Positions 1 through 64,000 of a DNA stretch of 64,000 nucleotides are shown here, one piece after another. The notes under the pieces were generated by a model. That model did not search any database and was not told the DNA's origin. It saw only the letters and a list, made by a program, of their open reading frames with translations. The position numbers were made by a program, and so were the translations under genes. The stretch lies in the IMG/VR virus record IMGVR_UViG_3300044551_000118; one strand, 5' to 3'. This stretch comes from a virus (lineage: Duplodnaviria; Heunggongvirae; Uroviricota; Caudoviricetes). Position 1 is the stretch's first letter, and the number at the start of each line of letters is the position of its first letter.

Positions 1-1284
1 ATGGGTATCGTCATGAACGATGACAGATTCGGCAGCGTGATTGCGCGCAAGAACAGGAACGGCGACGCGGCCTCGTGGCGGGCGAAGTACCACAGTCCCA
101 TCGACGGCAGCCAGGTGACGCGCTCCTTCAGATCGAAGAGCGCGGCGTATGCTTGGCTCGATGATGAACGCGACCTCGTGCGCGATCACATCAAGGGCCG
201 GGCGGCATGGGTGCATCCGTCCGAGCGGGAGAGGCGCAAGAGGGGCGCGGACACGCTCTTGCGCGAATACGCATGGGCATGGTACCGCAGGCACGGGCGG
301 ACGCGCGACGGGCATCCGCTGGCTCCGGCCACGCTGCGCTACAAGGACCTGGCGATGCTTAGGCTCGACGCCGCGTTCGGCTCTCGCCCCCTGCGTTCCA
401 TATCGCAGCGCGACGTGGACGAATGGCTTGCCTCTCCCGGCTTCGGGGGACGAACCCCGCTGCGCACGGCCTACCTGCTGCTGCGCTCCGTCATGACGGC
501 GGCCCAGAAGGATGGCTTAATCGATCGCAACCCTTGCGAGGCGGCTGTCCCCGCCAAGCCGAAGAGCGCCAATCGGCTCATCGCGCCCGCGACCCGAGAG
601 CAGATCGCCCGCATCGAGGCGGCGATGCCGGAGTATTCGCGCATCGCCATACGGGTGGCGCTCGCGTTCGGCCTGCGGGCCGCGGAGATATGCGCGCTGA
701 GGGTACGCGACTTCGACATGGATGCCATGGTCCTTCGTCTGCGCCATTCCGTGCGCCGGGGCGAGGGGGATGTGGGGCCGCTGCGCCTGGACGGCATGAA
801 GACCGATTCGAGCCGGGAGAACATGCCTATCCCGAGCGGACTCAAGCCGGTATTGGAGGAGCATATCGCCCGGTTCTGCGATACGGCGGGCGACGCCATG
901 CTCATCCGCCCCGTGCGCTCCGCCGTACTAAGCCCGAACACGCTGCGCGCCCAGTTCGACAGGGCGCGGACGAGGGCGGGACGCCCCGACCTGCATCTGC
1001 ACACGCTTCGCGCCACGGCCATCAGCGAGGCGGTGCACCAGGGCGCCGAGCCCGCCGAGACCCAGCGCTTCGGGCGGCACGCGGATCCGCGCGTGAGCCT
1101 TCAGGCATACCAGCGCGCCCGGGGCGAGAGCCGCATGCGCGAACTGTCCGACGACGTGTACGCGAGCCTGTTCGGCCCATCGGGCCACGAGAGCGCCAAG
1201 GCGGAGCTGGAGCGCACGGTGCGGGAGGCGAAGCTGCTGAACGAGCGGATACTGCGATTGGAGCGGCAGGTGGCGCGAGGCTAG
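1..1284 (+). CDS. int: tyrosine recombinase / phage-type integrase
   Basis: 427-aa ORF. C-terminal catalytic region has HxLR-type (HTLRATAIS) and tyrosine-containing (LQAYQRA) motifs. N-terminal SAM-like core-binding region. Followed by methyltransferase and excisionase-like genes. Confidence 0.8.
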   Translation: MGIVMNDDRFGSVIARKNRNGDAASWRAKYHSPIDGSQVTRSFRSKSAAYAWLDDERDLVRDHIKGRAAWVHPSERERRKRGADTLLREYAWAWYRRHGRTRDGHPLAPATLRYKDLAMLRLDAAFGSRPLRSISQRDVDEWLASPGFGGRTPLRTAYLLLRSVMTAAQKDGLIDRNPCEAAVPAKPKSANRLIAPATREQIARIEAAMPEYSRIAIRVALAFGLRAAEICALRVRDFDMDAMVLRLRHSVRRGEGDVGPLRLDGMKTDSSRENMPIPSGLKPVLEEHIARFCDTAGDAMLIRPVRSAVLSPNTLRAQFDRARTRAGRPDLHLHTLRATAISEAVHQGAEPAETQRFGRHADPRVSLQAYQRARGESRMRELSDDVYASLFGPSGHESAKAELERTVREAKLLNERILRLERQVARG

Positions 1285-1354
1285 CGCCGCCGGATGCACA
1301 CGCGCTTGTACTTCGCCTCGCCGCCCACCATGCTCTTGGCGAGGTCATAAGGGG

Positions 1355-2227
1355 CTACGCCCCCGTTGACCGCGCCGAGCAGCTCGAACGCGGCATCGGG
1401 CGAGGGCGAGAGCATGTCCATGACATTGATTGGCGCGCCCATCGGGCCGTGATAATCGTCGGGTTGAGATTCTTCGAGTCGCAGTCGATGATGTCCGTCC
1501 CGTCGAAATACGGGTGCAGTTTCGGGTCGTATGCCACGCCGGTATGGGCGTCCCCGCCCTTGCCAATCAGTCCTGAGGGCAGATTCGTGAACCAGCGGAT
1601 GCTGTTGAGGGCGACCGCGCGACGGCCCTCCCGCTCCTTGACCAGCACCGCGTCGATGTCGAAGCCGTAGCTGTCCGGGATGCGGAAGTATGTGTGATTG
1701 TCGGCGGTGCGCCCCAGCCAGCATCGCCCTTCGACGAACGCGGGCAGCACGGCGTGGTTGAGCGTCATATTGAGGCTTCCTATCGCCAGGAACCCCTTGC
1801 GCGAGCGGTCGATCACGCGGAACCAGTCGTCCCAGAGCGAGAAGGGCGGGTTGCCCAGGACGACATCGCACTGTGAGAGCATATCCAGCGCCTCAGGGCA
1901 GTCGAACGAGCCGGAGCCGGACAGGGGGGTGGGGATGAACTCCCCGTCTTTGAGATCCCATCGCGCCCCGCCGTCCCCGCCGAAGATGGTGTCCGTATCG
2001 GGCGAGTAGCTGATGCCGGTCACAGAGCGCAGGGAGAGGCGTCCCGCATTGTCGGCGGCCCACTGCATGAACCGCGACTCCGGCCCGTCGTTGGTGTTGC
2101 ACAGGATGCGCCTGCCCGCCAGGTCGGCGTCGTAGTGCGCGAGCTCGCGGTCCACGGTCTCCCGGAGCGTGTAGTACTCGTCGCGCTTGGCGCGCTGGGA
2201 CATCAGGAGACCGGCATTTCGAGGCAT
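1355..2227 (-). CDS. DNA N6-adenine methyltransferase (NPPF motif class)
   Basis: 290-aa ORF with the motif IV-like 'VLGNPPF' catalytic loop and an AdoMet-binding-like N-terminal region. Divergent from the second MTase. High GC3. Confidence 0.65.
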   Translation of the reverse strand: MPRNAGLLMSQRAKRDEYYTLRETVDRELAHYDADLAGRRILCNTNDGPESRFMQWAADNAGRLSLRSVTGISYSPDTDTIFGGDGGARWDLKDGEFIPTPLSGSGSFDCPEALDMLSQCDVVLGNPPFSLWDDWFRVIDRSRKGFLAIGSLNMTLNHAVLPAFVEGRCWLGRTADNHTYFRIPDSYGFDIDAVLVKEREGRRAVALNSIRWFTNLPSGLIGKGGDAHTGVAYDPKLHPYFDGTDIIDCDSKNLNPTIITARWARQSMSWTCSRPRPMPRSSCSARSTGA

Positions 2228-2235
2228 GGGGATAG

Positions 2236-2252
2236 ATATGCGTCCGACGCAT
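2236..2252. promoter_or_regulatory. perfect inverted repeat TATGCGTC-c-GACGCATA in the 35-bp divergent MTase intergenic region
   Basis: Read directly from the sequence. It sits between the start codons at 2227 (minus) and 2263 (plus). It is built from the ATGCGTC/GACGCAT box that recurs across the window. Confidence 0.45.
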
Positions 2253-2262
2253 AAGAGGCTCC

Positions 2263-3042: not shown

Positions 3043-3065
3043 GAGTCGTCCCCATCCCGGTCGTC

Positions 3066-3395
3066 ATGAGGCCGGACGAAGCCGCACGGAGGCTGCACTG
3101 CTCGCTCAGGCATGTCTACGACCTCGACATCCGCATGGTCAGGCCGAGCGCCCGCATCGCGTGGGTGCGCTCGGACAGGCTCAACCGGGCGTCCGGCTCG
3201 CATTTCCCCGAGGAGCGCTTCGTGAGCCACTGGCCCGCGGTCGGCGAGACGGCGGACATGCTGCATGTCTCCGCTAGCATGGTGCACCAGTGGATGAGCG
3301 ACGGGAGGCTGGAGTACCGCAAGCCGCATGCGCGGCTGGCGCTGGTCGACCCGGAGAGTGTCGTCAGGCTCGTCGGGGGAGCGGTGCGGCGCTAG
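3066..3395 (+). CDS. xis: excisionase / HTH DNA-binding protein (Xis-like)
   Basis: Begins 'MRPDEAARRLHCSLRHVYDL', a typical HTH_17 / excisionase N-terminus. Lies downstream of the integrase and MTases. An alternative in-frame GTG start at 3039 overlaps the MTase stop (GTGA). Confidence 0.55.
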   Translation: MRPDEAARRLHCSLRHVYDLDIRMVRPSARIAWVRSDRLNRASGSHFPEERFVSHWPAVGETADMLHVSASMVHQWMSDGRLEYRKPHARLALVDPESVVRLVGGAVRR

Positions 3396-4855: not shown

Positions 4856-4920
4856 ATATGCGCCTGCTGTTCGGCTAGGCGCGCGTCCCTGAGCATCCGC
4901 TGGACGCATATATCAGGGAT

Positions 4921-7089: not shown

Positions 7090-7167
7090 GCGAAGAGGCT
7101 ATGCGCCGGGCTCACCGGGACGCATATGGCCTATGACACCTCACTATATATAAAGGAGCATCTACTA

Positions 7168-7263: not shown

Positions 7264-7270
7264 GGGCGAC

Positions 7271-7708
7271 ATGGAATTTCTGGTCGTCCACCAGCTCATG
7301 CTGGCAATGGAGCCGCGTCAGGCGCGGCTCGTCTACGAGGGACGCAAGAGCGTGGAGCCGCGCCGCGTGACGGCGCTTTCGCCTTTCGATCGCACATACC
7401 TCTACGAGGCAGCGCCCGTCGGCATGGTCACCGGGTGCGCGGATGCCGTGCGCATCGGCTACGGCGACCCGGAAGGGTTCTGGGAGCGCTACGGCGACCT
7501 GACATGCCTGACGTATGAGGAGTTCAAGGGCCTGGTCTGCGAGAAGGACTCTGATTGGGCCTATGCGCCGGGCCGGCGCCTCGTCGGCGGCTATGTGCTC
7601 ACGAATCCGCATCGCTTCGAGACCCCGCAGCCGCTCTCGCGGTTCGGCGTCAGGTGCGCCCCGCAGAACTTCGCGTACTGCAATTCCGACGCATACGGGC
7701 TGCTATGA
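7271..7708 (+). CDS. ASCH-domain protein
   Basis: Contains the GxKxxExR signature (EGRKSVEPR) near the N-terminus, as in ASCH/PUA-like domains. The true start may be an internal Met at 7298 or 7307. Confidence 0.5.
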   Translation: MEFLVVHQLMLAMEPRQARLVYEGRKSVEPRRVTALSPFDRTYLYEAAPVGMVTGCADAVRIGYGDPEGFWERYGDLTCLTYEEFKGLVCEKDSDWAYAPGRRLVGGYVLTNPHRFETPQPLSRFGVRCAPQNFAYCNSDAYGLL

Positions 7709-8130: not shown

Positions 8131-8229
8131 GACGAAGCCAAAGGGCCTGAACGCCCTGTATGGCACCGTCGCTCGGCGGCATGCAACGAACATTCTAAGC
8201 TCTCCGCGCATGGACGCATATCGGCGTCC

Positions 8230-9399
8230 ATGACTGATCAACATATGCCGCCGCTGCTCCACGCGCTGGACGGAGCGGACTTCGCCAACCCCTGGATGTG
8301 GGCCGTGCTCTCGCTCGTGCTCGTGTGCTATCTCCTCGCCGCCCACGCTTGCGAGAGCACGGCAGGCAGGGTCTTCTTCGCGCTCCTCGCGCTGCCGGCC
8401 GCATGGCTGGGCTTCTGCGCCCTGGACTTCGCCTTCGCCATCTTCACGCCGAGCGGGCAGAGCGTGAACTTCTTCGCCCGCATCATCGACTGGCCGTTTC
8501 GGCTCATCGTCGGCATCGGGCTCTTCATTCTCACGCTCATGCCGCCGTGGCTCAAGAGCGAGGAGAAGAACATCTCCGCCCCCGCGAAGAAGACGCCGGC
8601 GAAAGCGGGAGGGCTGGCCTCTCTCGCCCGGCGCTACGGCATCGCCAAGGCCGCGCCCGGCGAGAGAGCCGTGCAGGGCTTCAAGTGCGTCGACCACGAT
8701 GCGGGCGGCGAGGCCACGGCGCTCTATGGCAGCTCGCAGTGGATAAATCTGGAGGACGAGCGCAGGGCGGGCCGTCTCTACGGCACTCCGGGCGTGGGTC
8801 TGGAGTCCTCTGGATTCGGCTCCGGCTCGATAGGCTCGGGCCGCCGGGGCGAGGAGACGCTCGCCTGCATGATAGCCGCAAGCCATCTCAACGTCATCGC
8901 GTTCTACTCGCTGTATGGCCGTGATGCGGCCGGCAGCCGCACGGATGCCGACATCGACTGCGTGCTGCTCGGCGCCGACCTGCAGGGCCATGCGCGCGCA
9001 TGGTTCGTGGATGCGAAGAACTACAAGGGAGGCTCCGACACGCGCTACGTGGATGCGGGCAACGGCTCGCTGGCCCGCATCTCCAAGTCCCTTCACGCCT
9101 TCGTGTCCGGCTCGAGGGGATCCGTCACGCTGCCCATGAGCGGCAACATGGCGGCGCAGCGCGCCCACTGGGAGGGCGTCCTCAGGTCCCACGTCATCGC
9201 CTCGACGTGGTGCGTGTGCATGACGCCCACCGGCGAGCACGGAGCGCCTGACGCGTCCGGCGTCGCATGGCCGGGGAGCGTCCCCGCATGGAGTGTGGAG
9301 CAGCTCGCGTCGAGCATCAGGAGCGCGGCGCTCGCGCCGGTCGACTCCATACGGGCGGCGGACATCAATCTGTTCCGGTCGGCCCTGAAAGGCGCATAG
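8230..9399 (+). CDS. membrane-anchored NERD-like (nuclease-related domain) protein
   Basis: Three N-terminal TM helices. The C-terminal region 'GRRGEETLACMIAAS...DIDCVLLGADLQGHARAWFVDAKNYKG' matches the NERD pattern (G..GE, D.D, E.K). The start codon lies inside the palindrome CATGGACGC-atatcg-GCGTCCATG. Confidence 0.5.
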   Translation: MTDQHMPPLLHALDGADFANPWMWAVLSLVLVCYLLAAHACESTAGRVFFALLALPAAWLGFCALDFAFAIFTPSGQSVNFFARIIDWPFRLIVGIGLFILTLMPPWLKSEEKNISAPAKKTPAKAGGLASLARRYGIAKAAPGERAVQGFKCVDHDAGGEATALYGSSQWINLEDERRAGRLYGTPGVGLESSGFGSGSIGSGRRGEETLACMIAASHLNVIAFYSLYGRDAAGSRTDADIDCVLLGADLQGHARAWFVDAKNYKGGSDTRYVDAGNGSLARISKSLHAFVSGSRGSVTLPMSGNMAAQRAHWEGVLRSHVIASTWCVCMTPTGEHGAPDASGVAWPGSVPAWSVEQLASSIRSAALAPVDSIRAADINLFRSALKGA

Positions 9400-11261: not shown

Positions 11262-11707
11262 GAGAAGAAGCCCTTCCTCTTGCGCTTCTCCCGGGCCGGG
11301 GGAGCGGGCATCGCGCGGAGGATGTTCGCCGCCGCGCTCATGCCGAGGGCATCGAGCACCTCGACGTCCATGCTCCCGGCCATCCGCTCGCGCTGGGCAT
11401 CGCCGAGCGTCTGGCGCTTCGCCAGCGCGCGGAGCACGACCGGCTCTTCGTCCCACGAGAGGTCCTCGATCAGATCGTCGGGCAGTCCGCTTCGCCCCGC
11501 GACCTCGGCGCGCACGGAAGCCGCGGAGTCGCGGGCCAGGTCGCCCAGCGCGCGGCTTCCGATCGCCACCATGCGGGCGGCGGCCCAGCGCACCGGCTCC
11601 GCATCGTCGTACGCGGCGCCGTCCGCATCCTTCGCTCCGGTCAGCACGCCGGTCGCATCGTCTACCCAAGTCATGCAGGTACGTATGCGTCGTGGGCGAA
11701 GAGGCAT
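11258..11707 (-). CDS. hypothetical protein
   Basis: 149-aa ORF translationally coupled to the VRR-NUC gene. Alternative start at 11674 (MTWVDD). Confidence 0.4.
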   Translation of the reverse strand: MPLRPRRIRTCMTWVDDATGVLTGAKDADGAAYDDAEPVRWAAARMVAIGSRALGDLARDSAASVRAEVAGRSGLPDDLIEDLSWDEEPVVLRALAKRQTLGDAQRERMAGSMDVEVLDALGMSAAANILRAMPAPPAREKRKRKGFFS

Positions 11708-12044: not shown

Positions 12045-12196
12045 CGGAATCGACGGCGAGAACGACGCCTCCTCTGTCGTCGCCCGCGTGCATCGCACAT
12101 CCCAAATCGATGCCTCGCGAGGACGGACGCCGCAGACGCATAGCGGCGAGCTGAACACCAAGATCGGTCGAATCCACGATTGAAGGAGATAGACAA

Positions 12197-16464: not shown

Positions 16465-16504
16465 GACGGGCAGTATGCGTCAGAGGCGGAGGCTTCGATT
16501 CAGG

Positions 16505-18532: not shown

Positions 18533-18547
18533 GAGGGACGGCTATGC

Positions 18548-18845
18548 GGCGCCGAAAGAGGCGATCTGGTACTTTATTGCTCCGAATATGGGCATGTGCG
18601 CCATATGCGCCGGCTAGCACCCGTATGCGTTTTTCGTTGTTTTTTCAACGAAAATGGGCGAAACTGCATACAGAACATACAGGTGCATACGGGCCATATG
18701 CACCCCTCATCCCTACTGCCAGTAGGGCTTTAGCCCCCCTGCATATGAGCATATGGTTTATAGAGGCTTTTATATGTTTAAGGGCTGTTTCGGGGGTTCC
18801 ATAGGAAAAGCCGTATGCATATGCAGTTTCGCTGTTTTCGGGGCC
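18548..18845 (+). repeat. structured repeat element, copy 4
   Basis: Core 18581..18845 plus the shared left flank. Downstream flank contains GTCCAGAACTTTC, which is also present next to copies 2 and 3. Confidence 0.7.
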
Positions 18846-18951
18846 ATATCCGCGAAAAAGGGGATGTCGCGCCACTCGCAGTCCAGAACTTTCGGATGGC
18901 CTCGCCCCTAATCGAGGCCATCCTCGCACCTTCCGACGCATACCGCCCTTC

Positions 18952-20322: not shown

Positions 20323-20491
20323 TCGCAGAAATGCGAGAAACGCCCGTCTGCGGGCCTGACGTGCGCTGGTGGTAGGGGATGTATCGCCTTTCGCATATCA
20401 GGCACGCAGACGGGCGTTTCCGTTCGTCCTGCGGACATGCGTCCGTTTCCGCCGCGCCTCTCGAAGGGGGTGGCTTGTCTCCCTGTTTCGC

Positions 20492-21331: not shown

Positions 21332-21361
21332 GGGGGAGGATATGCGTCGGAGACGGAACAA

Positions 21362-24010: not shown

Positions 24011-24092
24011 TTTCTTCCTTTCGTTCGGTTCCTACGAGGTCATCCCGCGCTATGCATCGGACGCATGCTCGGACGAGGCATAGGAGGAGTGC

Positions 24093-29460: not shown

Positions 29461-29710
29461 GCTCTCCATATGCGTCCCGGATGGGCGGGTATGATCGATT
29501 CCCGCGAGCGACAAGAGCATTAGGGATATGGGGCCGGACGAGCTGAAGGCTGCGGCGACAGAGAGCGAACAGGCGCGCGCCGCAGTGGACGCCGAGCGAC
29601 GACGGCGATGGGATTCGTTCAAGGAAATCCTGAAAACGCCTTTCAAGAGCATCCTCGACTAGGCGCGACGCGCCCGGCGTCCATTAACTGAATCCCCGTA
29701 AATCATCGAA

Positions 29711-29948
29711 CTGCATATGCATACGGCTTTTCCTATGGAACCCCCGAAACAGCCCTTAAACATGCCAAAGCCTCTATAAACCATATGCTCATATGCAGGG
29801 GGGCTAAAGCCCTACTGGCAGTAGGGATGAGGGGTGCATATGGGCCGTATGCACCCGTATGTTCTGTATGCAGTTTCGGCTGTTTTCGTTGAAAAAACGC
29901 CGAAAAACGCATACGGGTGCTAGCCGGCGCATACGGCGCATATGCCTC
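29711..29948 (-). repeat. structured repeat element, copy 5 (inverted orientation)
   Basis: Reverse complement of the 16538-type element. Lies between two divergent gene clusters. Confidence 0.7.
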
Positions 29949-30418: not shown

Positions 30419-30674
30419 GCGGGGTGCATGCAGGAGAGCGAGGAAGCGGCGATTCCTCCCCGCCCACAAGGGGCGGAGTTTCCTCGCCGCAAATCTCATG
30501 AAGCCCCCGCGCGAAGCCCAAGCATCTCTCGGACAACCAAGAAAAAGACGGCTTCGCGCGGGGCCTTTTTCCTCAAGCGGGACGCATCAGAGAGGCAACG
30601 AGGGCGCTCAGAGGTCGTCCGAACAGCCAATATGCTGGCAGCGCCCTCGCCCAACCTATAGAAGGAGAACCCAT

Positions 30675-33441: not shown

Positions 33442-33646
33442 GCTGCGCTGCTATGCGAAGAGAGGAGCGCCGCCGGTCGACGCGCGGTCGTTCGCATAAT
33501 CCATGGGGGGCGCTCCTGCCGTGGCATATGCGTCAGAAGGAAGAAAGGGCGCCGGCGGCGCACGTGTGGTTGTGCGCGCCACTTCCCGGGCCTTGCGGCG
33601 CTCTGCGATATCCGATGCGTCCCGCACGGGACGCATATGCCCCTTC

Positions 33647-35257: not shown

Positions 35258-35502
35258 GGCCTTGCCTCGCTTTCCGCATCGACTCGGGGGCTATGCGCAC
35301 AGCCGCGCATGATGCAGCAAAGAAAGCCGCTGCGCTGAGGCAGCAGAGGCGCATCGGATATGCTCCCGGCGACTGCTCGCCGAGGGCCTCCTTATATCCG
35401 CCCCGACCTTAGGCATAGCCCCTGTCCGGGCGGGCCGCGAAGCAGGACGCATGCCGCTCATGTGAAAGCGGGAAAGTCTCCCGCGACAAGGAGAGGAAGA
35501 AC

Positions 35503-38089: not shown

Positions 38090-38426
38090 ATTCCCCGCCC
38101 CTTGTGGGCGCGGGAGGAATTGCCGTCCTTTCGCCCGCCCTTCCAGACGCATACATGCACTCATGAAACGGAAGAGCCCGAGCGCCAAGCGGCGGGAGAG
38201 TGCGTCTTCAAGTTCTCGCGTCCGCGTGCTCAACATGCCTCTCGCCTTCACCGAGGAACAGTTCGCGCTTCTGCTTCATGCAGCCGACCTCTACAGTCGC
38301 TGCTGGCAGTCGATAACAGAGTGCGCTGCGCCCATGATGGACGAAGCGCCTGCGATGGCGTCTGCTCTGCAGACAGTCGCAGGAATCACGCTCACGTCCA
38401 AGCCGCAGGGATCGTCCCTGCGGTAA
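38090..38426 (+). mobile_element. tnpB: IS200/IS605-family remnant: left-end-like hairpin plus 5' fragment of tnpB (OrfB_IS605 N-terminal region), copy 1
   Basis: 'RVRVLNMPLAFTEEQFALLLHAADLYSRCW' matches the TnpB N-terminal 'lk.rl.Pt.eQ...l......R..yN' region. ~250 bp (including upstream ccccgccccttgtgggcgcggg) is ~85% identical to 55705..55965. The ORF is truncated after ~90 codons. Confidence 0.55.
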
Positions 38427-40246: not shown

Positions 40247-40370
40247 GACCGCTCGCATGCGTCGGACGTAGGGCGCGAGGTTATCGCTACTGCATACAAG
40301 CGAAGGCCCGCGACTGATTCCTTGCAAAGAAGTCAGGCGCGGGCCTTCGCTATCATGTCCTCTATTGCGC

Positions 40371-43073: not shown

Positions 43074-43149
43074 GGCTCTTTTCCTTTCGATGGGCAGAAT
43101 CGCCTATGATTCCTACATGCGTCCTATTCGCGCAATCCTGTGACGCATA

Positions 43150-43714
43150 TGCGTATCCAGCGCGCGACGTCAACGTTCTCCATAAAGACGATGGCGGCGG
43201 CAGAAGCCCCTTACTGCTTCGTAACGGACCGGGCCAGCGCCGCGCGCATTGCTTTCCTTCGGGACGCATACGAAACACTGCGCGGCGTCAACGTCGCTGC
43301 GTCGAATGGTTTCAACAGCATTCGGCGCGGAGCGATGGCGGGGAGCAGCCCGATCGATCACCTCGGCAAGCCACGACCCCCGCCAGCGCCGCGCCTTTTC
43401 CTCTTATCGGACGCATAGCGCGTATCGCACGGCGTCAACGTCGCCGCCGCGGATCCTTTGAGACAGTCCGTGGGCGGATCGATGGCGGGGATAGGACGAT
43501 TTAGACAACCTTTTTCGTCTGCTGAAGCCCCGCCAGCGCCGTGCATTTTCCTTATCGGACGCATAGGCATTATCAGAACGCGGCGTCAACGCCGCTGCCC
43601 TGCGGGCTTTACGGGATCATTCACTCGCGGGATTGCAGAACGATGGCGGGCGAGGATGGTCTGATAACCTTCCACCCGATGACCCCGCCAGCGCCGCGCT
43701 CTTCCTCTTTTCAG
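43150..43714. repeat. tandem array of four ~120-150-bp non-coding direct repeats
   Basis: Unit starts near 43150, 43270, 43417 and 43565. Conserved blocks per unit: GCGxCGTCAACG, GATGGCGGG, CCCGCCAGCGCCGCGC and TTTCCTxTTATCGGACGCATA. Confidence 0.6.
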
Positions 43715-44404: not shown

Positions 44405-44483
44405 ATGGACTGCGATATGCGTCGGAAGACGCCAGCGGCCCGTGCAGGAGACATCCCGCACGGGCCGCTCTGTTCGATGTCTT

Positions 44484-45691: not shown

Positions 45692-45973
45692 CTATGCGAA
45701 CCGGAGCTGGCGATACGGCCCGTACGCCTCGATGAGGCTGGCGGGCACCACGTCCAGACGGGCCAAGCGATTGCGCTCCGATATCCATGTGACATGGGGC
45801 ATCTCCGCTTCGCGGTAGAGGCCGGGCGCCAGATGCTTCGCGTTCCCCTCTTCATGCCGGGCGACGACCAGCTCGGTGCGGTCGCCCTCGGCGAGGTAGA
45901 GGTGTCCGTCCGGAGTGCGGTAGGCGCGCTGGCGGGTGTTGCGGATGAGATAGGGAGTCGGGTAGGTCTTCAT
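45692..45973 (-). CDS. hypothetical small protein immediately upstream of family member 2
   Basis: 93 aa, ending 9 nt before the downstream start. Confidence 0.4.
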   Translation of the reverse strand: MKTYPTPYLIRNTRQRAYRTPDGHLYLAEGDRTELVVARHEEGNAKHLAPGLYREAEMPHVTWISERNRLARLDVVPASLIEAYGPYRQLRFA

Positions 45974-46023
45974 GTCCCGAGGAATGCGTCCTGCAGCAGA
46001 ATCGCTTCGAGCAGGGCAGGCAT

Positions 46024-46256: not shown

Positions 46257-46477
46257 CGCTTTTCGCCGACGCATAACCTGACTTAACCCCCGCGCGAAGC
46301 CTGCCCGAGGCGCCATGTCGTTCCACATCGTTTCTGGCGCCGACGGGCCTTCGCGTGGGGCGCCTCGTATCCGGATAGGGGAAAGCGCGGCAGCTGCCGG
46401 TCCACTGGCCGTACGTTTCCTCGATGAGCTGCGACGCTATTGTCGGCAATCCGTCCCATCCGCGCATAGACATCCAT

Positions 46478-47786: not shown

Positions 47787-48179
47787 TTGGCATCACTCAT
47801 CGCGCAGTGCAATCAGGCCCTTGAGGCCGCCGGCTGGCAGCCGAAGGACAACAGGGATTACTTCACGAAGTGGCATGGAAGGATGGTGCGCGTGCTCATC
47901 ATCGCGGCGTGGGCCGAGGACAGGCACTACGGCGAGCTCATCATCCGGCGCGCGGAGTGCGAATCCTCCGCCCGGCCCGACCAGATGCGGCACATGGCCG
48001 CGTTCGCAGACACTGAGGCGATTCATTTAGGCGAGTGCGAAGGGAGTGCGGATGCGCTGACGAAGCTCCTGACCGGCCTCGACTACTGGTCGGAGCAGAA
48101 TCCGTTCCATGACTCCGCAGAGAAGAGGAATGCCGATATGGCGCTGTTCCGAAGGGGAAGCGCTGCAAGAAAAGGATAG
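47787..48179 (+). CDS. hypothetical protein
   Basis: 130 aa with natural composition. Confidence 0.45.
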   Translation: MASLIAQCNQALEAAGWQPKDNRDYFTKWHGRMVRVLIIAAWAEDRHYGELIIRRAECESSARPDQMRHMAAFADTEAIHLGECEGSADALTKLLTGLDYWSEQNPFHDSAEKRNADMALFRRGSAARKG

Positions 48180-48267
48180 AAAGAGCGGAGAGCCGCTGCC
48201 GGGCCAAGTATGAGCATGCGCTTAATGTTTGTGTAGCAGCTCTCCGCTCGTCATCCTTCATGCGTCC
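48179..48267. repeat. ~90-bp hairpin element, right-flank copy (R1) of the Doc-like module
   Basis: gaaagagcggagagccgctgccgg...gcagctctccgctcgtcatccttcatgcgtcc. Related to 49533..49624, with a compensatory stem change. Confidence 0.45.
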
Positions 48268-48273
48268 GTCATC

Positions 48274-48999: not shown

Positions 49000-49523
49000 G
49001 CCGCCATCCTCTCCTTCAGGGGGATAATGATGTTCCCGTGCGCATACTCGCGCAAGGCGGCCTCATCGGGAAGCAGGGACAGATAGCGCTCCCGGTCATT
49101 CGCGGGCACGACCCATACGCCCTCGCCGCTCTGCATCGCCGCATGATTGGCGAGCAGGCCGCCCAGAACCGGGCTGTCATGCAGAACGCTTGCGATATGG
49201 ATGGCATCCCCTTCGAGAGGCACCGCAGGGAGCTTGATTCCGAGAAGTGCGGCATATCGTTTCGCAGCGTCGGCAAGCGACTCTTCATGGCAATCCGCGG
49301 CATATGAGATGCATGATGCAAGAGAGAACACCAGTGCCACATCGCCGACCGGCATGCCCTCGCTCGCCCATCCTGACGCGACGATGCCCGAGACCTGCGT
49401 GAAGCCGATCGACGGCGAGGCGAGGCAGGCCAGCCCGAAGGCCATGTCCTCCGCGCTGGAAAGGAGGAGCCGCTGGATGTCTGTGATCTGCATGCCACTC
49501 ATTCTAGCCGCCGTTCGTTTCAT
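48996..49523 (-). CDS. hypothetical protein, upstream partner of the Doc-like gene
   Basis: 175 aa. Its stop overlaps the Doc-like start (ATGA). Confidence 0.45.
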   Translation of the reverse strand: MKRTAARMSGMQITDIQRLLLSSAEDMAFGLACLASPSIGFTQVSGIVASGWASEGMPVGDVALVFSLASCISYAADCHEESLADAAKRYAALLGIKLPAVPLEGDAIHIASVLHDSPVLGGLLANHAAMQSGEGVWVVPANDRERYLSLLPDEAALREYAHGNIIIPLKERMAA

Positions 49524-49532
49524 ACCGCGATG

Positions 49533-49624
49533 AGAAAAGAGCGAAGAGCCGCTGCCGGTCGTTTTTTTGGGCGTGCGTGTCGATTCTGGGCTATGGCTCT
49601 TCGCTCGTCACCCTTCATGCGTCC
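49533..49624. repeat. ~90-bp hairpin element, left-flank copy (R2) of the Doc-like module
   Basis: gaaaagagcgaagagccgctgccgg...ggctcttcgctcgtcacccttcatgcgtcc. The stem AGAGCGAAGAGCC/GGCTCTTCGCTCG covaries with R1 (G-to-A change compensated by C-to-T). Confidence 0.45.
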
Positions 49625-49675
49625 CATCTTTCTTGACGCATATTCCATCTCAACCCAATAAAGGAGAGAAGTTTT

Positions 49676-51878: not shown

Positions 51879-51978
51879 GCGATGTTGTATGCGTCCGGAA
51901 AGAAGGAGAAACAGCCGCCGCGCGCGCCTGGGATATACGGATTGGATGAGGGCGGCTGTATAACTTCTCTTATGCGTC

Positions 51979-52659: not shown

Positions 52660-52691
52660 GCCGTCGCGCTATGCGAGCGGCGGCATGCGTT

Positions 52692-52919: not shown

Positions 52920-53313
52920 CGTTCCTTTCGTTTCCGCATCATATGCGTCCTGCAATCCAAGGCCGTTGCCTGGCTCCAGCCTATCATTTTCGCTCTGGAC
53001 GCATTCCCGGTATGCTAACCCGTAGAACATAGGGAAAGATTACGAAAAGGAGTGCAGAAAGCGTGGCAAAGCCCTCCCAGCCGTGCGCGAGGCGTTCGGA
53101 GAGCCTGGTCTCGAATTCCTCGAAGCCGGTCGAGTATGCGACGTCGATGTCGCGGCAGACAAGGCCGCCCACGGGCCGCAGGGCCGCCAGCCGAAGGGCG
53201 CTCCCGGAGGAATCGGCGGACGGTTCGCCTAGCGTCGCTCTGAGCGCCTAGCTGCGGCTGATGCTGCAATGATGCCCGGCGTTGCCATCAGGCCTGGAGT
53301 TTGCACCCGTCGC

Positions 53314-53676
53314 ATGACAGAGTATGTGCATCCAGCGCATAGCGCGAATCCCATGAGACTCTTCCTGTGCTCCGCCCAGCCGTACATCGCCAGCATGTTC
53401 CTGCTCGCGATCGTCGTCTACATACTGCACGTCCAGCCGCATCATCGCTCAGCGCCCGCGTGGCTGAACGCCGCCATGGCGCTCTCGGCGCTGGGCATGG
53501 GCTCCTGCGAGCTGACCATCGATCTCACGGGCTATCCCATCGCCATCCCCGCGGCGCTGGCATTCTTCGCGCTGTCCGCCGTCATGGGACGGATGGCGTT
53601 TCGTCAGCTCTTCGGGCCGAGCGCCGCGTCCAGCCGCGCCGTGAAGCCGTCCAGCGACTTCGCGTCCCGCTCGTAG
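53314..53676 (+). CDS. hypothetical membrane protein
   Basis: Three predicted TM helices. Start uncertain (53269 or 53314). Confidence 0.3.
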   Translation: MTEYVHPAHSANPMRLFLCSAQPYIASMFLLAIVVYILHVQPHHRSAPAWLNAAMALSALGMGSCELTIDLTGYPIAIPAALAFFALSAVMGRMAFRQLFGPSAASSRAVKPSSDFASRS

Positions 53677-54872: not shown

Positions 54873-54905
54873 GAAAGAATATATGCGTCGGCGGTTGCTC
54901 TTGTC

Positions 54906-55622: not shown

Positions 55623-55699
55623 GGTTGGGCCTATGCGTCGGCATGTGACGCATATGGGACGAAATGAACGATTTCTCGATTTCCATGATTTTTGCGGCG

Positions 55700-56125
55700 A
55701 GGCCACTCCTCCCCTTGTGGGCGTGAGAGGAATCGCCGCCTCCTTGCTCCCCCATATGCGCCCCCGCTCTGACGCATACATGCACTCATGAAGCGGAAGA
55801 GCCTGAGCGCCAAGCGGCGGGAGAGTGCATCCTCAAGCCCTCGCGTGCGCGTGCTCAACATGCCTCTCGGCTTCACCGAGGAGCAGTTCTCGCTTCTCAT
55901 GCGCGCAGCCGATCTCTACGGTCGCTGCTGGCGGTCGATAACGGAGTGGTGCTGCGCCCATGAGTCGGCATCGCGCAAGACGGTGCATGAGGCAAATTAC
56001 TACAGGCTGCGAGAAGCGTATCCCGAGCTTCCCGCCCAGTTCGTCATCCGCGCCATAGCTTCGGCCTTAGGCGCGGTCAGGAGCTGGAACTCCGACCATC
56101 CAAGGAGGAAGTGGCGGCATAAGAA
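55700..56125 (+). mobile_element. tnpB: IS200/IS605-family remnant: left-end-like hairpin plus 5' fragment of tnpB, copy 2
   Basis: MKRKSLSAKRRESASSSPRVRVLNMPLGFTEEQFSLLMRAADLYGRCWRSITEW...ANYYRLREAYPELPAQFVIRAIASALGAVRSWNS matches TnpB N-terminal blocks and then degenerates. ~85% nucleotide identity to copy 1. Ends at a hairpin (56120..56168). Confidence 0.55.
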
Positions 56126-56189
56126 GGCCCCTGCGCGTCGAAGTCAAAACGACGTGCAGGGGCCTTCTTATGCCGTTACGACGAAAGCC

Positions 56190-57968: not shown

Positions 57969-58042
57969 CGGCGAAAAGCGCCAAGGACGCGGCGGCGGAT
58001 CACCCTACGGGGCGATCCGCCGCCGCGTCCTTGGCGGAGAAA

Positions 58043-59485: not shown

Positions 59486-59601
59486 GAAGATAATTCAGAA
59501 GGACATATGCGTCCATCAGGAGAAGGAAAAGGCGGAGCGCCGCGTCGGGGATGGATGCTCGGGGCATTGCCGGGCGCTCCGCCTATCGCACTGCATGCGT
59601 C

Positions 59602-60552
59602 CTAATCAGACAAAGCCGCCGCATACGCCTCCATGAGCCTGCGCACGACAGGAGCCATGTCCGCAGGCAGCCTGTAGTCATCGTCTCGCAACGCCACGAT
59701 GCGCAACCATCCCTCGTCCAGCTCGGCCTTCGACATCGAAGCCGCCTTGGCGGCTTCTGGCGCATCGACGCCTGCGGCAAGCGCGAGCATGCCCGTCCTA
59801 TCCGCCGCATCGAGCCGCATGCGGGCCTTCGCCATATTGCTGTACGCCGCGGCGCGCTGCTCCTCCGTCCACGTCAGGCTCTCCTCCACGCCATCCGCCG
59901 CCAGCCGGGCGTTCGTCACGGCCTTGCCCAGGCACACGATGCCGCGCACGTTCAGCCAGCCGACCTGAACCCGGTGCTGGTCGCGGTAGAGCGAGCGGGC
60001 CGCCTTGCGGGCGGCATCCGCGGTATCGGGAGCCGGCTCCGCCATCCATGCCTTGAGCGCATCCGAGAACCGATCGACCTTCGGCTCTCCCGGCTGTCCG
60101 GTCATATGCCAGACGATCAGCTCGGACACGACCGCTCCGTGCGCGCGGGCGCGCCGTGGCTCGTCGAGCCATGCACGGCACTCGGGCCACCAGGCGGCGG
60201 CGTAATGCAGGTCATCCGCATCGCCGATCGAAGCCAGCATGCGGATGAGCGAAGATGCAAGCGGGTCGTCGCCCGGATGCGATTTCGGCTTGCGCGGAGC
60301 GTTCTTCGTTTCGACAGGCGCGCATTCGGGGCAGCGCACGCGCTTGGGGAACAGGTCAGTCGGCTTCTCGCCATGGAAGTTCGCGGAGAAGCGGGAGACT
60401 GCATGCCCGCATTCGAGCCTCAGCTCATAGCGCCTGTTGAGCCAGTAGTGGTAATGCTGGCCCCAGATATCCGAGTCATTACCGCGATCGTGGACGACGA
60501 TGGATGCGACCTTGCGCAGGGGCTGAATTTGTTTGCTCATAGGCGATGACAT
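59602..60552 (-). CDS. hypothetical protein (N-terminal Cys/His cluster)
   Basis: 316 aa. N-terminus has a CGH...CPEC arrangement suggestive of a zinc finger. High GC3. Confidence 0.5.
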   Translation of the reverse strand: MSSPMSKQIQPLRKVASIVVHDRGNDSDIWGQHYHYWLNRRYELRLECGHAVSRFSANFHGEKPTDLFPKRVRCPECAPVETKNAPRKPKSHPGDDPLASSLIRMLASIGDADDLHYAAAWWPECRAWLDEPRRARAHGAVVSELIVWHMTGQPGEPKVDRFSDALKAWMAEPAPDTADAARKAARSLYRDQHRVQVGWLNVRGIVCLGKAVTNARLAADGVEESLTWTEEQRAAAYSNMAKARMRLDAADRTGMLALAAGVDAPEAAKAASMSKAELDEGWLRIVALRDDDYRLPADMAPVVRRLMEAYAAALSD

Positions 60553-60650
60553 GCGTCTAGGAGGGAAAAAGGCGGGGCACCGAGCGCGATCTGGGCATTC
60601 GCAAGGCGCTTGGGCGTTCCGCCTACCATCCCATATGCGTCAGGCGCAAT

Positions 60651-61681: not shown

Positions 61682-62701
61682 TTAGTCGGACGAATCCGAT
61701 GAAGCGTCCGTATCCGTGGATGCGTCCAAGGGCGCGGGCGATGCCGAATCGGATGCGCCTTTCGGCTTGGCGGGCGCCGGACCCGACCAGCGGTTCGCGT
61801 AGTCCTTGATGCCCGGCCCCGTGCCCGCAGGCCCCCATGCCAGGATCTTCGGGGTGCCGTCGGGGTCGCGCAGAATCACGTCGTAGTCGAAGCGGGCGCC
61901 CTGCGAAGTGTCATCCGGGGCCTTGGCGGTGATGGTCACCGAGACGACGGCGGTATCCGAGCTGGACTTGTCGCGCGCCACCTTGCCGCGATCCAAGTAT
62001 GCGCCGTTGTTCACTGTCACGCTGTCCGCGCCGCCCAGGGACAGCGGCATGTAGGAGGCCCCCGGGTTCGGGTCCGCCACGATGGTGGTCAGCAGCGATC
62101 TGTCCGAGCCGAACAGGGCATTGCCCCAGTTGGTCAGCAGCCGGGAGGCGGCGCCCGGAGGCGCGTACTGCTTGATGGAGCTCGGCCAGGAGTGGCCCGC
62201 CCCCGCGCCGGATGCGACGGACACGGGAGCCGAGAGCGGCGTGGCGGCGGGGTTGCCGATCGGCTGCCCGCCCGGGCCGATGACCGCATCCACCGTCCAC
62301 CAGCGCCCGTCCTGGCCCTGCACGGTCATCGTGTGGCGCATGGCCGTGAACGCCTTGTTGGACGTATCTCCGGACACCTGCAGCGCCTGGGCGCCGTTCC
62401 AGCTCACGATGGATGCGGGGCCTCCCAGCGGGCTGCCGGAGCCCAGCCACGACTCGACCTGCTGGTAGGCGGACTGCTTGCCAGACGGATTGAAATCGGG
62501 TTTGATGGGCGGCTTGGGCGGGGGCATGGAGCCGATCGTCATGATCAGATAGACGAGCAGCCCCAGGATGACGTACCAGACGATCCGGTACCACCGGGTG
62601 CGGCCCGCCACCAATTTCACGAACTCCTTGTCGGGGTCCGGCTCCTTCTTGACCGCCTCGGCCCAGACGTCCGCTTCCTTCTTCTTCGCTTTGAGTGCCA
62701 T
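61682..62701 (-). CDS. hypothetical membrane-anchored protein
   Basis: N-terminal Lys-rich segment, one TM helix (IVWYVILGLLVYLIMTIGS), then a ~270-aa exported domain and a Ser/Asp-rich tail. Confidence 0.5.
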   Translation of the reverse strand: MALKAKKKEADVWAEAVKKEPDPDKEFVKLVAGRTRWYRIVWYVILGLLVYLIMTIGSMPPPKPPIKPDFNPSGKQSAYQQVESWLGSGSPLGGPASIVSWNGAQALQVSGDTSNKAFTAMRHTMTVQGQDGRWWTVDAVIGPGGQPIGNPAATPLSAPVSVASGAGAGHSWPSSIKQYAPPGAASRLLTNWGNALFGSDRSLLTTIVADPNPGASYMPLSLGGADSVTVNNGAYLDRGKVARDKSSSDTAVVSVTITAKAPDDTSQGARFDYDVILRDPDGTPKILAWGPAGTGPGIKDYANRWSGPAPAKPKGASDSASPAPLDASTDTDASSDSSD

Positions 62702-62804
62702 GTATCCACGCTATGCGTCCGCGCGGCGCATAGCGATGCCGCGAGCGCGCCGAGAGACGGCGCGGACATCCTCTCCCCCAAGAGAAGGAAGGAAGCACAT
62801 CCCC

Positions 62805-63176
62805 ATGATCACCGGAAAATCCATCGACCTGGCCTACGGCTTCGGCACCATCACCAATCAGACCAAGGGGGCGGCGGCCCTGTTCGCCTCCACTGTCGCA
62901 GGCTCCAGCTTCGGCACGGCGCTGAAGGTCATCGGCGCGCTGGTCGTCTTCGTCTCCGTCGCCGTCATCCTCATCCGCAAGTTCTGGCCCAACAGCCCGC
63001 TCGGCTCGATGGTTCAGGGCTCGAGCATCTTCGTGTGGGTCACCTGCGGCATCCTCCTGGGCGTCACGATGTTCGCGCCCGGCACCATCCTGCCGATTGT
63101 CGGCGTCATCGTCGGCATCGTGCCGGACGTCGCCGTGTGGGCGGCCTCCAAGCTGTTCCCGGGCATCGGACTGTAG
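62805..63176 (+). CDS. small polytopic membrane protein (possible conjugation-associated, VirB2/PrgI-like size class)
   Basis: RBS GAAGGAAGGAAG. 123 aa with three hydrophobic helices. Confidence 0.4.
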   Translation: MITGKSIDLAYGFGTITNQTKGAAALFASTVAGSSFGTALKVIGALVVFVSVAVILIRKFWPNSPLGSMVQGSSIFVWVTCGILLGVTMFAPGTILPIVGVIVGIVPDVAVWAASKLFPGIGL

Positions 63177-63192
63177 GGGAAGAGGGGACGCG

Positions 63193-63600
63193 ATGCTCTT
63201 CGACATCACCCGCATCAGCGGCAACAGGGTCGACCAGGTCGACGAGCTCAAGATCACGCAGCGCATCTGGTTCCGCTCCACCGATCTGCTCATCGCCCTG
63301 GCCGGGCTTCTGCTCGGCGCCCTGGCAGCCGTCCCCTTCTTCGCCCTCTTCGCCTCCACCTGGCCGCTGGTCCTGAGCCCCATCGGCATGGTGATCGCCC
63401 TGACGTTCTTCACCCGCAAGCGCTCGGTGGCCGGGGAGTTGAACCCCCGGCGCTTCGACCGCATGCGAGACCGCGCCAAGGCCCTGGACGGGCAGTTCAT
63501 CCTGCCCGGCTCCGGCGAGCCCTTCAGCCCCAACAGCTACCGCATCGTCGAGCAGTGGAGGCGCCCGATATACGGGCGCAAGCCGTACAAGCTGGAATAG
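63193..63600 (+). CDS. small membrane protein
   Basis: 135 aa from MLFDITRISG with two TM helices. Follows the previous gene by 16 nt. Confidence 0.4.
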   Translation: MLFDITRISGNRVDQVDELKITQRIWFRSTDLLIALAGLLLGALAAVPFFALFASTWPLVLSPIGMVIALTFFTRKRSVAGELNPRRFDRMRDRAKALDGQFILPGSGEPFSPNSYRIVEQWRRPIYGRKPYKLE

Positions 63601-63714
63601 AGGCGTCGCGATGCGCGAAGCGGCCCTCTGCATTCTCTCGTTCTTCTTGTGAAGGATGGGGGAGGCGGAAAGGCCGCTTCTTGCGTCTCTGGGGGTGGAT
63701 GCATACGAGAGGGC

Positions 63715-63888
63715 ATGATTAGCTTGCTTGCTCTGGGGATATCCGCCGCCGTATTCCTGACGGTCTCGATCTGCTCCTTCGTCGCTCTGCGAGACGACAT
63801 CCTGAATCTGGAGGACCTGTTCGCCGCCTCGGAGCGGAACCGCGCCGCATGGGACGCGATGTTCGAGCAGCTGCGGGGCGAGCGATGA
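63715..63888 (+). CDS. hypothetical small membrane protein
   Basis: Start chosen at MISLLALGI. One TM helix. Weak support. Confidence 0.3.
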   Translation: MISLLALGISAAVFLTVSICSFVALRDDILNLEDLFAASERNRAAWDAMFEQLRGER

Positions 63889-64000
63889 GCATAATGGCCC
63901 TCGTCCTTCTTCTGCTCTCGCTGGTCGTCGCCTCATTCGGCTACGCCCTGCACCGCATTCTCAGCCACGGAATCGATTGCCGCGGCATTGACGGGCGTTC
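63885..64000 (+). CDS. hypothetical membrane protein (5' partial, runs off the window)
   Basis: ATGA overlap with the upstream gene. MSIMALVLLLLSLVVASFGYALHRIL... Confidence 0.3.
   Translation, partial: MSIMALVLLLLSLVVASFGYALHRILSHGIDCRGIDGR

Follow-up and report, generated by a model that had tools for sequence, protein, structure and literature searches.

A directional CGCATA box at a fixed distance from start codons and hairpins in a Bifidobacteriaceae conjugative island: a candidate core promoter element

Element-specific promoter motifs are already known on mobile elements, as are the fixed-distance promoters of leaderless actinobacterial genes, and these are the systems with which a short box, GGACGCATA, repeated in a 64,000-nucleotide stretch of DNA (IMG/VR virus record IMGVR_UViG_3300044551_000118; "the window" below means this whole stretch), has to be compared. 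In leaderless genes a constant distance separates the start codon from the promoter's -10 region, and their signature is the exclusive use of ATG, the lack of a Shine-Dalgarno (SD) sequence, an element at a fixed short distance and C and A at positions -1 and +1. The group-3 sigma factors use composite -10 regions (GCCGATAA for sigma-28/WhiG and CCCCATNT for sigma-32) and also need a conserved -35. Among actinobacterial phages, those of cluster K (mycobacteriophages) have start-associated sequences (SAS) that stand 3-8 bp before the start and include the ribosome-binding site, and the stoperators of cluster A mycobacteriophages are repressor sites which keep no fixed distance to start codons. 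In Bifidobacterium pseudolongum leaderless transcripts make up 15% of mapped start sites (PMC4782308). The nearest concrete case is that of pMP7017, a megaplasmid of Bifidobacterium breve, in which a plasmid-specific 34-bp motif overlaps the -10 of 19 promoters and the mapped promoters are canonical (PMC10832533).

The repetition of the box is a real feature of the window. The 8-mer ATGCGTCC/GGACGCAT occurs 31 times, against 4.38±2.22 (maximum 10) in dinucleotide-preserving shuffles of this DNA, which has a GC content of about 66%; an earlier reading of the sequence alone had put the chance expectation slightly too low, at 2-3 per 64 kb where the shuffles give 4.4, but the enrichment that it reported stands, and the box positions that it listed are all correct to within 0-6 nt. 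The 7-mer ATGCGTC/GACGCAT is present in 57 copies where 16.1±4.2 are expected. Forty-eight of these are intergenic although about 86% of the window is coding (our own open reading frame (ORF) calls leave a non-coding share of about 14%), and the remaining nine lie within genes at a density at or below chance. On a rough gene map built from codon-position GC content, of the 53 genes at the head of a transcription unit, 38 carry a sense-strand GACGCAT or CGCATA no more than 110 nt upstream, which bears out the statement that the box stands before most transcription units. A full-text search of a paper library found none that gives the box as a motif.

It is clear from alignment that the box has a direction. 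On the sense strand it reads either (yCC)GACGCATA, here called type I, or n-n-CGCATAG, type II. When the 57 copies were oriented as GACGCAT the following base was A in 35, and A-T-G, preceded by C, stood 10-12 nt past the T far above chance; from -60 to -2 relative to the box no column exceeded 0.3 bit. At type I boxes, 21 ATGs lie 9-11 nt past GACGCAT and each opens a long ORF, whose GC content at third codon positions is above 0.8 except in two (0.71-0.72). The arrangement GACGCAT-N10-ATG occurs 20 times, against 0.24±0.47 in Markov-simulated sequence. Nine more gene starts carry the type II form, in which CGCATAG is followed by 8-10 nt, mainly nine, and then ATG. The consensus of 29 aligned sites is y-C-C-G-A-C-G-C-A-T-A with CGCATA as its core block; the final A of the core is present in 26 of the 29 and the preceding G-A in two thirds, while CGCAT is invariant through the selection of the sites. 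Position -1, counted from the A of the ATG as +1, is mostly C, so that the two form the pyrimidine-purine pair usual at start sites. Many of the box-led ATGs are the starts that were picked independently by the gene caller of a public collection in other assemblies of the same island, and tblastn matches to the FtsK-like protein begin at residue 1 in four other species. The sequence-only reading had recognised the motif but missed both its directionality and its fixed 10-nt offset to the start codon.

The genes led by the box were then compared with the other genes of the window for their translation signals. All 30 box-led starts are ATG. The duplex with the anti-SD sequence, taken over the 18 nt upstream, has a median energy of -2.5 kcal/mol for type I and +0.1 kcal/mol for type II starts, and only two of the 30 reach -6 kcal/mol; the other 28 are hence without an SD sequence. 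For the other called genes (n=51) the median is -5.9 kcal/mol, 24 reach -6, many have a textbook AAGGAG and 13 start with GTG or TTG. In about ten cases a gene with an SD sequence of its own has a sense copy of the box 20-90 nt upstream (Table 1), and the distance from box to start is constant only where the SD sequence is missing. Since these distant copies precede SD-bearing genes, they argue against the box being a translation signal. The lack of SD sequences, the exclusive use of ATG, the element at a fixed distance and the C/A pair at -1/+1 together form the leaderless signature, and most island genes are probably made as leaderless mRNAs through a non-standard promoter. One of the SD-led genes (7119-7262, + strand) encodes a very hydrophobic 31-aa peptide, MTIIIAIVAFFAGSTLGTVAAALAFAARRND, behind a strong SD sequence, and was also called in locus L006.

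The same offset is found where no gene follows. Behind about 13 copies there is no ORF but a long hairpin (a three-way junction in the case of the tandem units described below) and then a T-rich tract. All 57 copies were scanned for stems with a 7-nt arm, a perfect complement 25-150 nt downstream and then at least five T in 10 nt; such stems start at offsets 10-14 past GACGCAT (4-6 hits each, nine copies in all) and at none of the offsets 0-9, with a background rate of 0.0016 per position. That a single offset marks both the A of the ATG and the first paired base of unrelated hairpins has the transcription start as its simplest meaning, and, given how exact this offset is, the box must at the least include the element by which RNA polymerase is positioned. 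Furthermore, a hairpin lies immediately upstream of several box-led genes (21331, 44406, 18952 and 51878), so that the box is the sole conserved element between the hairpin and the ATG.

These observations make it fairly likely that a family of integrative conjugative islands in the Bifidobacteriaceae has the box as its core promoter element, in the -10 region, and from the shared offset we infer that +1 lies 10 nt past GACGCAT, so that the conserved block would extend from about -17 to about -10. For some 30 genes +1 would be the A of the ATG, giving a leaderless mRNA for which an SD sequence is not needed; at about ten genes there would be a short leader of roughly 11-80 nt with a normal SD sequence; and at about 13 places the product would be an RNA of 55-135 nt consisting of one long hairpin or three-way junction with a T-rich terminator tail, its first paired base at +1 or within a few nucleotides of it. 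Since terminator-like hairpins separate many genes, most genes look like self-contained promoter-gene-terminator modules. The box would probably be read by a dedicated factor that the island or the host encodes, be it an alternative sigma or a protein associated with RNA polymerase; we infer such a specificity factor because the box does not fit TANNNT and has no conserved -35. The suggestions of "an unusual promoter element" and of a site of element-wide control, made from the sequence alone, are thus fitted by orientation, the 10-nt offset, the missing SD sequences, the hairpin offset, and the conservation in relatives and absence from controls described below.

Judged from an integrase gene beside a tRNA cluster, the gene content and the homologues in Bifidobacteriaceae, the window is part of a tRNA-Val-integrated conjugative island of a member of that family. 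The tyrosine integrase gene occupies positions 1-1284 and has no box before it. In other assemblies (L006, 1-586) it follows a cluster of tRNA-Cys, tRNA-Val(GAC) and tRNA-Val(CAC) by about 230 bp, and this cluster is the likely integration site; the spacer pattern of the cluster had no match in metagenomes, and tRNA and Rfam searches of the window itself found nothing, a relaxed threshold yielding chance hairpin matches only. Also encoded are two DNA methylases, an excisionase-like helix-turn-helix (HTH) protein, a PIF1-type helicase, a VRR-NUC nuclease, an FtsK/SpoIIIE-like ATPase, CHAP and NlpC/P60 wall hydrolases, a SpaA-type pilin, Fic, LemA/TPM and GmrSD-like proteins, and a 1304-aa surface protein with Listeria-Bacteroides repeats; the homologues of LemA are mostly in other phyla. 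An 832-aa protein (35503-38001, + strand) has a signal-peptide-like N-terminus, long repetitive stretches rich in Ala, Lys and Gln, a globular centre and, after LASTG, a hydrophobic anchor at its C-terminus; it is predicted to form coiled coils, Pfam gives no hit for it, and it probably belongs to the conjugation apparatus as a wall-anchored surface protein. It had been considered as a YonO-like polymerase, which was rejected on account of its Ala-rich composition, its N-terminus and its C-terminal anchor.

Homologues of the FtsK-like protein that are 53-61% identical are found in Bifidobacterium castoris, B. canis, B. cuniculi, B. animalis and Bombiscardovia coagulans, and others, 26-28% identical, on B. 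breve and B. longum megaplasmids of the pMP7017 type. The viral contig collection contained no relative of this gene, and when 25 kb of the window were compared by megablast with phage and plasmid collections nothing matched except 97 bp of pMP7017. GCATA-N9/10-ATG, present 32 times in the window where 1.9 are expected, occurs 4-8 times in each of six related loci of about 20 kb (L002, L003, L005, L010, L011 and L013; 0.35-1.15 expected in each), mostly at called gene starts. Relatives with just 53-57% identity in the FtsK-like protein retain GCATA(G)-N9/10-ATG at gene starts, and before the FtsK orthologue GCATAG-N9-ATG is kept in five of six lineages, with spacer and upstream bases fully diverged. 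The type II form predominates in the relatives and type I in the window; this shift means that the recognition sequence drifts together with the element, as is more readily understood for a reading factor that travels along.

The first 100 kb of pMP7017 contain eight copies of GCATA-N9/10-ATG (3.8 expected) and none of GACGCAT-N10-ATG, and the box shows no enrichment in them. As a chromosomal control, 845 kb around tRNA-Cys were taken from 120 metagenome contigs which resemble mostly Bifidobacterium chromosomes; here GACGCAT occurs at 0.25/kb, which is chance, and CGCATA-N9/10-ATG at 0.017/kb against 0.42/kb in the window, although this control represents one region, is redundant and comes mostly from other species, with taxonomy unchecked (GC 39-65%). 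On whether the density of the motif is island-specific or genome-wide, a question raised with the motif itself, the control and pMP7017 therefore support island specificity without proving it.

Compared with the known systems, the box is most like the leaderless promoters in its fixed short distance to the start codon, the missing SD sequence, the use of ATG only and the little or no -35. If +1 is set at the ATG, CGCATA has its TA at -11/-10 in type I and at -12/-11 in type II, which is also the place of the TA in TANNNT, the -10 hexamer that stands at a fixed distance before the start codon in leaderless promoters of Actinobacteria and Deinococcus, and the T and A of the box lie at about -12/-11. 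It is unlike them in its block (GA)CGCATA at -17 to -10, in lacking their near-invariant T at -7 and in being confined to one mobile-island family, whereas leaderless promoters are genome-wide. With the -10 regions of group-3 sigma factors it shares a GC-rich "extended -10" followed by (C)ATA, at about -17 to -9, but the box has no -35, its sequence is not the same as theirs and the island yielded no sigma of this kind. Like the SAS and the stoperators, which are repeated 10-35 times and stand mostly in short intergenic gaps by gene starts, it is a short asymmetric repeated motif of an actinobacterial mobile element, oriented with transcription; unlike the SAS it has no SD complementarity and stands 9-10 nt from the start after GACGCATA, and unlike the stoperators it holds an exact 10-nt offset. 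The pMP7017 motif is alike in belonging to the same host family, in being element-specific, present at many promoters and absent from chromosomes, and pMP7017 shares much of the conjugative gene set with the island (sortase, SpaA pilin, InlB-repeat protein, EcoRI-like methylase and FtsK-like protein); it differs from the box in its sequence, AWAYATGYTATACTGAATATGTCCACATAAAAWA, in its canonical TATACT -10 and in serving genes that have leaders and ribosome-binding sites.

The box copies that form palindromic pairs had been taken to indicate, as one of three options, a dimeric DNA-binding global regulator. All of the inverted pairs listed are present, one of them (49617/49635) with a gap of 11 nt rather than 9, but they lend that idea no support. 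Most box copies are single, the arms are spaced by 1, 7, 8 or 11 nt where the operator of a dimeric regulator would have half-sites at a constant spacing, and each arm has a downstream feature of its own. In 2238/2246 and 55633/55647 each arm lies 10 nt before its own divergent ATG, that of the 55647 arm opening a 45-codon ORF only; in the divergent methylase genes the two ATGs are 35 bp apart and 17 of these are the two boxes (TATGCGTC-C-GACGCATA). In 33615/33630 and 49617/49635 one arm is followed by a hairpin unit at offset 10, while the opposite arm lies 10 nt before an ATG (33630) or, at 49635, precedes the SD-led LemA gene by 34 nt. Since each arm serves its own ATG, hairpin or SD-led gene, the pairs are better described as back-to-back divergent units than as single binding sites. 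The EcoRI-like methylase gene of the first pair (1355-2227, - strand) was given three different starts across assemblies (307, 282 and 290 aa), and the rule of box plus 10 nt selects ATG 2227.

Table 1. Box copies, box-hairpin units and long repeats of the window, by position and strand. Type I boxes read GACGCATA and type II boxes CGCATAG unless another sequence is given; distances run from the box to the start codon.
Feature	Position	Strand	Associated gene or structure
Type I box, GACGCATA	2237..2244	-	10 nt to ATG 2227, EcoRI-like methylase gene 1355-2227; no SD
Type I box	2246..2253	+	10 nt to ATG 2263, N6/N4 methylase; back to back with the 2237 box
Type I box	4903..4910	+	11 nt to ATG 4921, 308-aa protein; identical start called independently in L006
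Type I box	7688..7695	+	10 nt to ATG 7705
Type I box	8213..8220	+	10 nt to ATG 8230, 389-aa zinc-ribbon protein
Type I box	11684..11691	-	10 nt to ATG 11674
Type I box	16474..16481	-	10 nt to ATG 16464
Type I box	18935..18942	+	10 nt to ATG 18952, PIF1-like helicase
Type I box	21341..21348	-	10 nt to ATG 21331; hairpin immediately upstream
Type I box	29469..29476	-	9 nt to ATG 29460, Phage_VG64-domain protein
Type I box	33630..33637	+	10 nt to ATG 33647; inverted partner 33614-33621
Type I box	38146..38153	+	10 nt to ATG 38163, 87-aa ORF
Type I box, GACGCATG	40256..40263	-	10 nt to ATG 40246, DUF2142 membrane protein; 424-aa start called independently in L001
Type I box	44416..44423	-	10 nt to ATG 44406; hairpin immediately upstream
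Type I box, GACGCATT	45983..45990	-	10 nt to ATG 45973
Type I box	51888..51895	-	10 nt to ATG 51878, FGase-family protein
Type I box	54882..54889	-	10 nt to ATG 54872
Type I box	55632..55639	-	10 nt to ATG 55622, NlpC/P60 hydrolase
Type I box	55771..55778	+	10 nt to ATG 55788
Type I box, GACGCATG	60550..60557	-	10 nt to ATG 60540
Type I box	62712..62719	-	11 nt to ATG 62701, 339-aa protein
Type II box, CGCATAG	7100..7107	-	N9, ATG 7089, phage-tail-lysozyme-like protein
Type II box	9391..9398	+	N9, ATG 9409
Type II box	18543..18550	-	N9, ATG 18532
CGCATAC box	29926..29933	+	N8, ATG 29942; start uncertain, alternative ATG 29960
Type II box	33452..33459	-	N9, ATG 33441, FtsK/SpoIIIE-like protein; GCATAG-N9-ATG in 5/6 orthologous loci
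Type II box	45693..45700	-	N8, ATG 45683
Type II box	46461..46468	+	N8, ATG 46478
Type II box	52670..52677	-	N9, ATG 52659
Type II box	53334..53341	+	N10, ATG 53353
Box before SD-led gene	7119..7126	+	about 40 nt before ATG (about 7167) of 31-aa hydrophobic peptide gene
Box before SD-led gene	12135..12142	+	55 nt before GTG 12197, 1304-aa surface protein with Listeria-Bacteroides repeats
Box before SD-led gene	24060..24067	+	26 nt before ATG 24093
Box before SD-led gene	30581..30588	+	87 nt before ATG 30675; predicted leader opens with hairpin
Box before SD-led gene	35446..35453	+	50 nt before ATG 35503, 832-aa Ala-rich protein, probably wall-anchored
Box before SD-led gene	43116..43123	-	43 nt before ATG 43073
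Box before SD-led gene	49635..49642	+	34 nt before ATG 49676 (LemA)
Box before SD-led gene	52942..52949	-	26 nt before ATG 52916
Box before SD-led gene	59506..59513	-	21 or 33 nt before ATG 59485/59473; SD precedes 59473
Box before SD-led gene	61719..61726	-	50 nt before ATG 61669; within 3' end of upstream gene
Box, N10-12, hairpin, T-rich tail	51896..51978	-	between stop codon 51979 and next promoter box (putative)
Box-hairpin-T-tail unit	59514..59601	-	directly after stop codon 59602; stem from offset 10
Box-hairpin-T-tail unit	60558..60641	-	after stop codon 60651; stem from offset 10
Box-hairpin-T-tail unit	48150..48266	-	after stop codon 48274; sequence resembles the 49510-49623 unit
Box-hairpin-T-tail unit	49510..49623	-	stem from offset 10
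Two successive box-hairpin units	33460..33621	-	boxes 33614-33621 and 33527-33534; before the FtsK-like gene's own box
Box, long hairpin, T-rich tail	20330..20443	-	stem from about offset 15; downstream of gene 20492-21331
Box, long hairpin	46268..46380	+	hairpin from about offset 13; no clear T tail
Four tandem units	43142..43710	+	121, 147, 148 and about 148 bp; boxes at 43142, 43263, 43410 and 43558
Long repeat (about 270-340 bp)	11774-12045	-	GCATA/TATGC-rich; upstream of leaderless gene (predicted)
Long repeat	16457-16800	-	GCATA-rich
Long repeat	17121-17439	-	GCATA-rich
Long repeat	18543-18845	-	GCATA-rich
Long repeat	29693-29965	+	GCATA-rich
Long repeat, diverged copy	46031-46268	+	GCATA-rich

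The hairpin units fall into recurrent arrangements. In four or five cases a stop codon is followed within 0-8 nt by a box, N10, a hairpin, a T-rich tail, a second box, N9-10 and the next ATG (51972/51889, 59595/59507, 60635/60551 and 48260); a promoter before such a hairpin would yield a short RNA fully paired at its 5' end. In the tandem array each unit has a box, N10, a three-way-junction fold whose closing stem is GCGCGGCG/CGCCGCGC and which holds two inner hairpins, and a T-rich tail. The units share conserved blocks, one compensatory G-C to A-U change is found in the closing stem, the fold z-scores are -3.6, -3.3 and -1.0, and there was no match in Rfam; the units at 43142-43710 are candidate small-RNA genes. 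A promoter of the form TTGACG-N15-18-TATGCG reading the opposite way through the units was rejected, as its spacing is inconsistent (15, 15 and 18) and no gene lies downstream. Direct box pairs in the window lie 83, 84, 87, 88 and 147-148 bp apart, near whole 10.5-bp helical turns, and others (96, 121 and 124 bp) lie off them; the helical fit is possibly a coincidence.

The largest intergenic gaps are occupied by a repeat of about 270-340 bp in five or six copies, four of them about 95% identical. Most copies are upstream of genes predicted to be leaderless, the copy at 17121-17439 instead preceding another copy. It had been noticed that the motif is the building block of structured repeats, and by alignment each copy indeed carries about ten GCATA/TATGC cores in both orientations, in arrangements such as TGCATATGCA and TGCATA-N7-TATGCA, together with a CCCTACT/AGTAGGG hairpin and an AT-rich hairpin, TTTYCGNNG-A6-CNNCGAAAA, whose fold is kept by compensatory changes. 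Neither this repeat nor the 147-bp tandem unit was found in the related loci examined or in the plasmid collection.

Closely related island variants (95-99% identical) differ by whole segments. Window positions 48152-49634 (the Fic gene and a neighbour; compare L013 714-842) and 55642-60611 (five genes; compare L013 7396-7421) are absent from L013, the first of them adjoining the 48150..48266 unit, and the segment boundaries lie at box-hairpin units or within about 25 nt of them. It seems from this that the islands acquire and lose gene modules at these units, which may serve as linkers for module exchange. A hairpin of a different kind, with a perfect 20-bp stem and runs of A and T on both sides, lies at 51057-51102 between the convergent TPM-domain and FGase-family genes and is, by its sequence, a strong bidirectional terminator-like structure.

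Several points weigh against a core promoter. A T at hexamer position 6 is found in four of 29 sites, the background frequency, so that the box matches no known recognition by the sigma-70 family, and there is no conserved -35 upstream of the box copies. For a housekeeping sigma-70-type promoter that T and a -35 16-18 nt upstream would be expected, and neither is seen, nor does a conserved GGAAC-like -35 lie upstream of the box as in the promoters of extracytoplasmic-function sigmas (GGAAC-N16-17-CGT). A scan for TTGACA-N16-18-TATAAT over 20 kb and about 25 genes gave four matches against 3.1 expected, so canonical promoters of this type are not enriched, a result that speaks for the box instead. 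Searches of the roughly 80 island proteins with Pfam, PHROGs and NCBIfam gave neither a sigma factor nor an RNA polymerase nor an obvious regulator, with the exception of one HTH_17 excisionase-like protein (3039-3395); the island continues for at least 10 kb past the end of the window. A promoter that follows the stop codon of a gene yet precedes that gene's terminator hairpin, as in the four or five cases above, has no obvious purpose, the GCATA cores in both orientations within the long repeats look more like a protein-binding array than like promoters, and the narrow scope of the chromosomal control counts here also.

It is possible, although in our judgement rather unlikely, that the box is instead the operator of an island-encoded repressor or activator which acts over weak host-type promoters and switches most island genes together. 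The box is element-wide and specific to the island family, and it may be likened to the repeated repressor sites of temperate actinophages; the box pairs 83-88 and 147-148 bp apart are near whole helical turns, the repeats of about 270 bp with their dense GCATA/TGCATA cores in both orientations are like a binding array, and the lack of a box upstream of the integrase gene would be expected if integration were separately controlled. The 34-bp motif of pMP7017 (PMC10832533) sets a precedent from within this family of bacteria. Yet there is no separate -10 beside the box except its own TA, the T at hexamer position 6 being at background, an asymmetric site of 8-9 bp is short for a dimeric regulator and the inverted pairs are spaced by anything from 1 to 11 nt, no candidate regulator was found among the island proteins, and the exact 10-nt offset to both ATG and stem start means that the box positions RNA polymerase. 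An operator can be reconciled with the promoter if the GACG part is an operator fused to the -10. The constant distance to AUG and to the base of the hairpins could also arise in RNA, were the box an endoribonuclease site cut about 10 nt downstream or a translation-initiation signal that replaces the SD sequence, and boxes between a stop codon and a hairpin would indeed be within the transcript of the upstream gene; but the box has no anti-SD complementarity, its distance varies at genes with an SD sequence of their own, hairpins directly upstream of many boxes would block read-through, and where divergent starts are 35 bp apart with two boxes filling the space any other promoters would have to sit inside the neighbouring gene. 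An action in RNA is therefore considered very improbable.

We give still less credence to a site of DNA maintenance, such as a guide of the KOPS, SRS or TRS kind for the FtsK/SpoIIIE-like translocase, a core for cassette recombination or the target of a methylase or restriction enzyme. The island does encode an FtsK-like protein, a tyrosine recombinase and two methylases, and the variant segments 48152-49634 and 55642-60611 end at or beside box-hairpin units. Translocase guides, though, are skewed along the replicon or confined to one cis locus and independent of genes, whereas the orientation of the box tracks each adjacent gene, on both strands, and not the axis of the element; the copies that count here are intergenic only, at a fixed offset to the ATG. 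Unlike the cores of integron attC sites, the boxes that flank hairpins are direct repeats outside the stem, and the genes lie in both orientations; the hairpins at the variant junctions are different from each other, so these are not simple products of site-specific recombination. If the box sets transcription starts, the variant boundaries would be accounted for by homologous recombination that swaps modules at conserved promoter-terminator linkers. GACGC is also the recognition site of HgaI, and a reading of the box as an HgaI site was rejected because the cut positions (5/10) do not fit the offset.

If the box is a core promoter element, a wider scheme may be entertained, tentatively and at less than even confidence: the island family could have an orthogonal code in which a sigma-like or polymerase-associated factor encoded by the island reads (GA)CGCATA, so that most genes would be expressed as leaderless mRNAs alongside a dozen 5'-closed hairpin RNAs, including the four-unit array, with the promoter-hairpin units doubling as linkers for module exchange.

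If the promoter assignment is true, the rule that a start lies 10 nt past the box would serve to correct miscalled gene starts in these islands, and attention would be drawn to some 13 hairpin RNAs as candidate small RNAs and to the GCATA-rich repeats. The box would then also be a compact and possibly orthogonal promoter for the engineering of bifidobacteria. For the islands themselves it would mean that most genes of a conjugative element of more than 75 kb, in several Bifidobacterium species (an FtsK-like homologue is likewise present in Bombiscardovia), use one non-standard promoter and no ribosome-binding site, and it would point to a specificity factor that could switch the whole island on or off.

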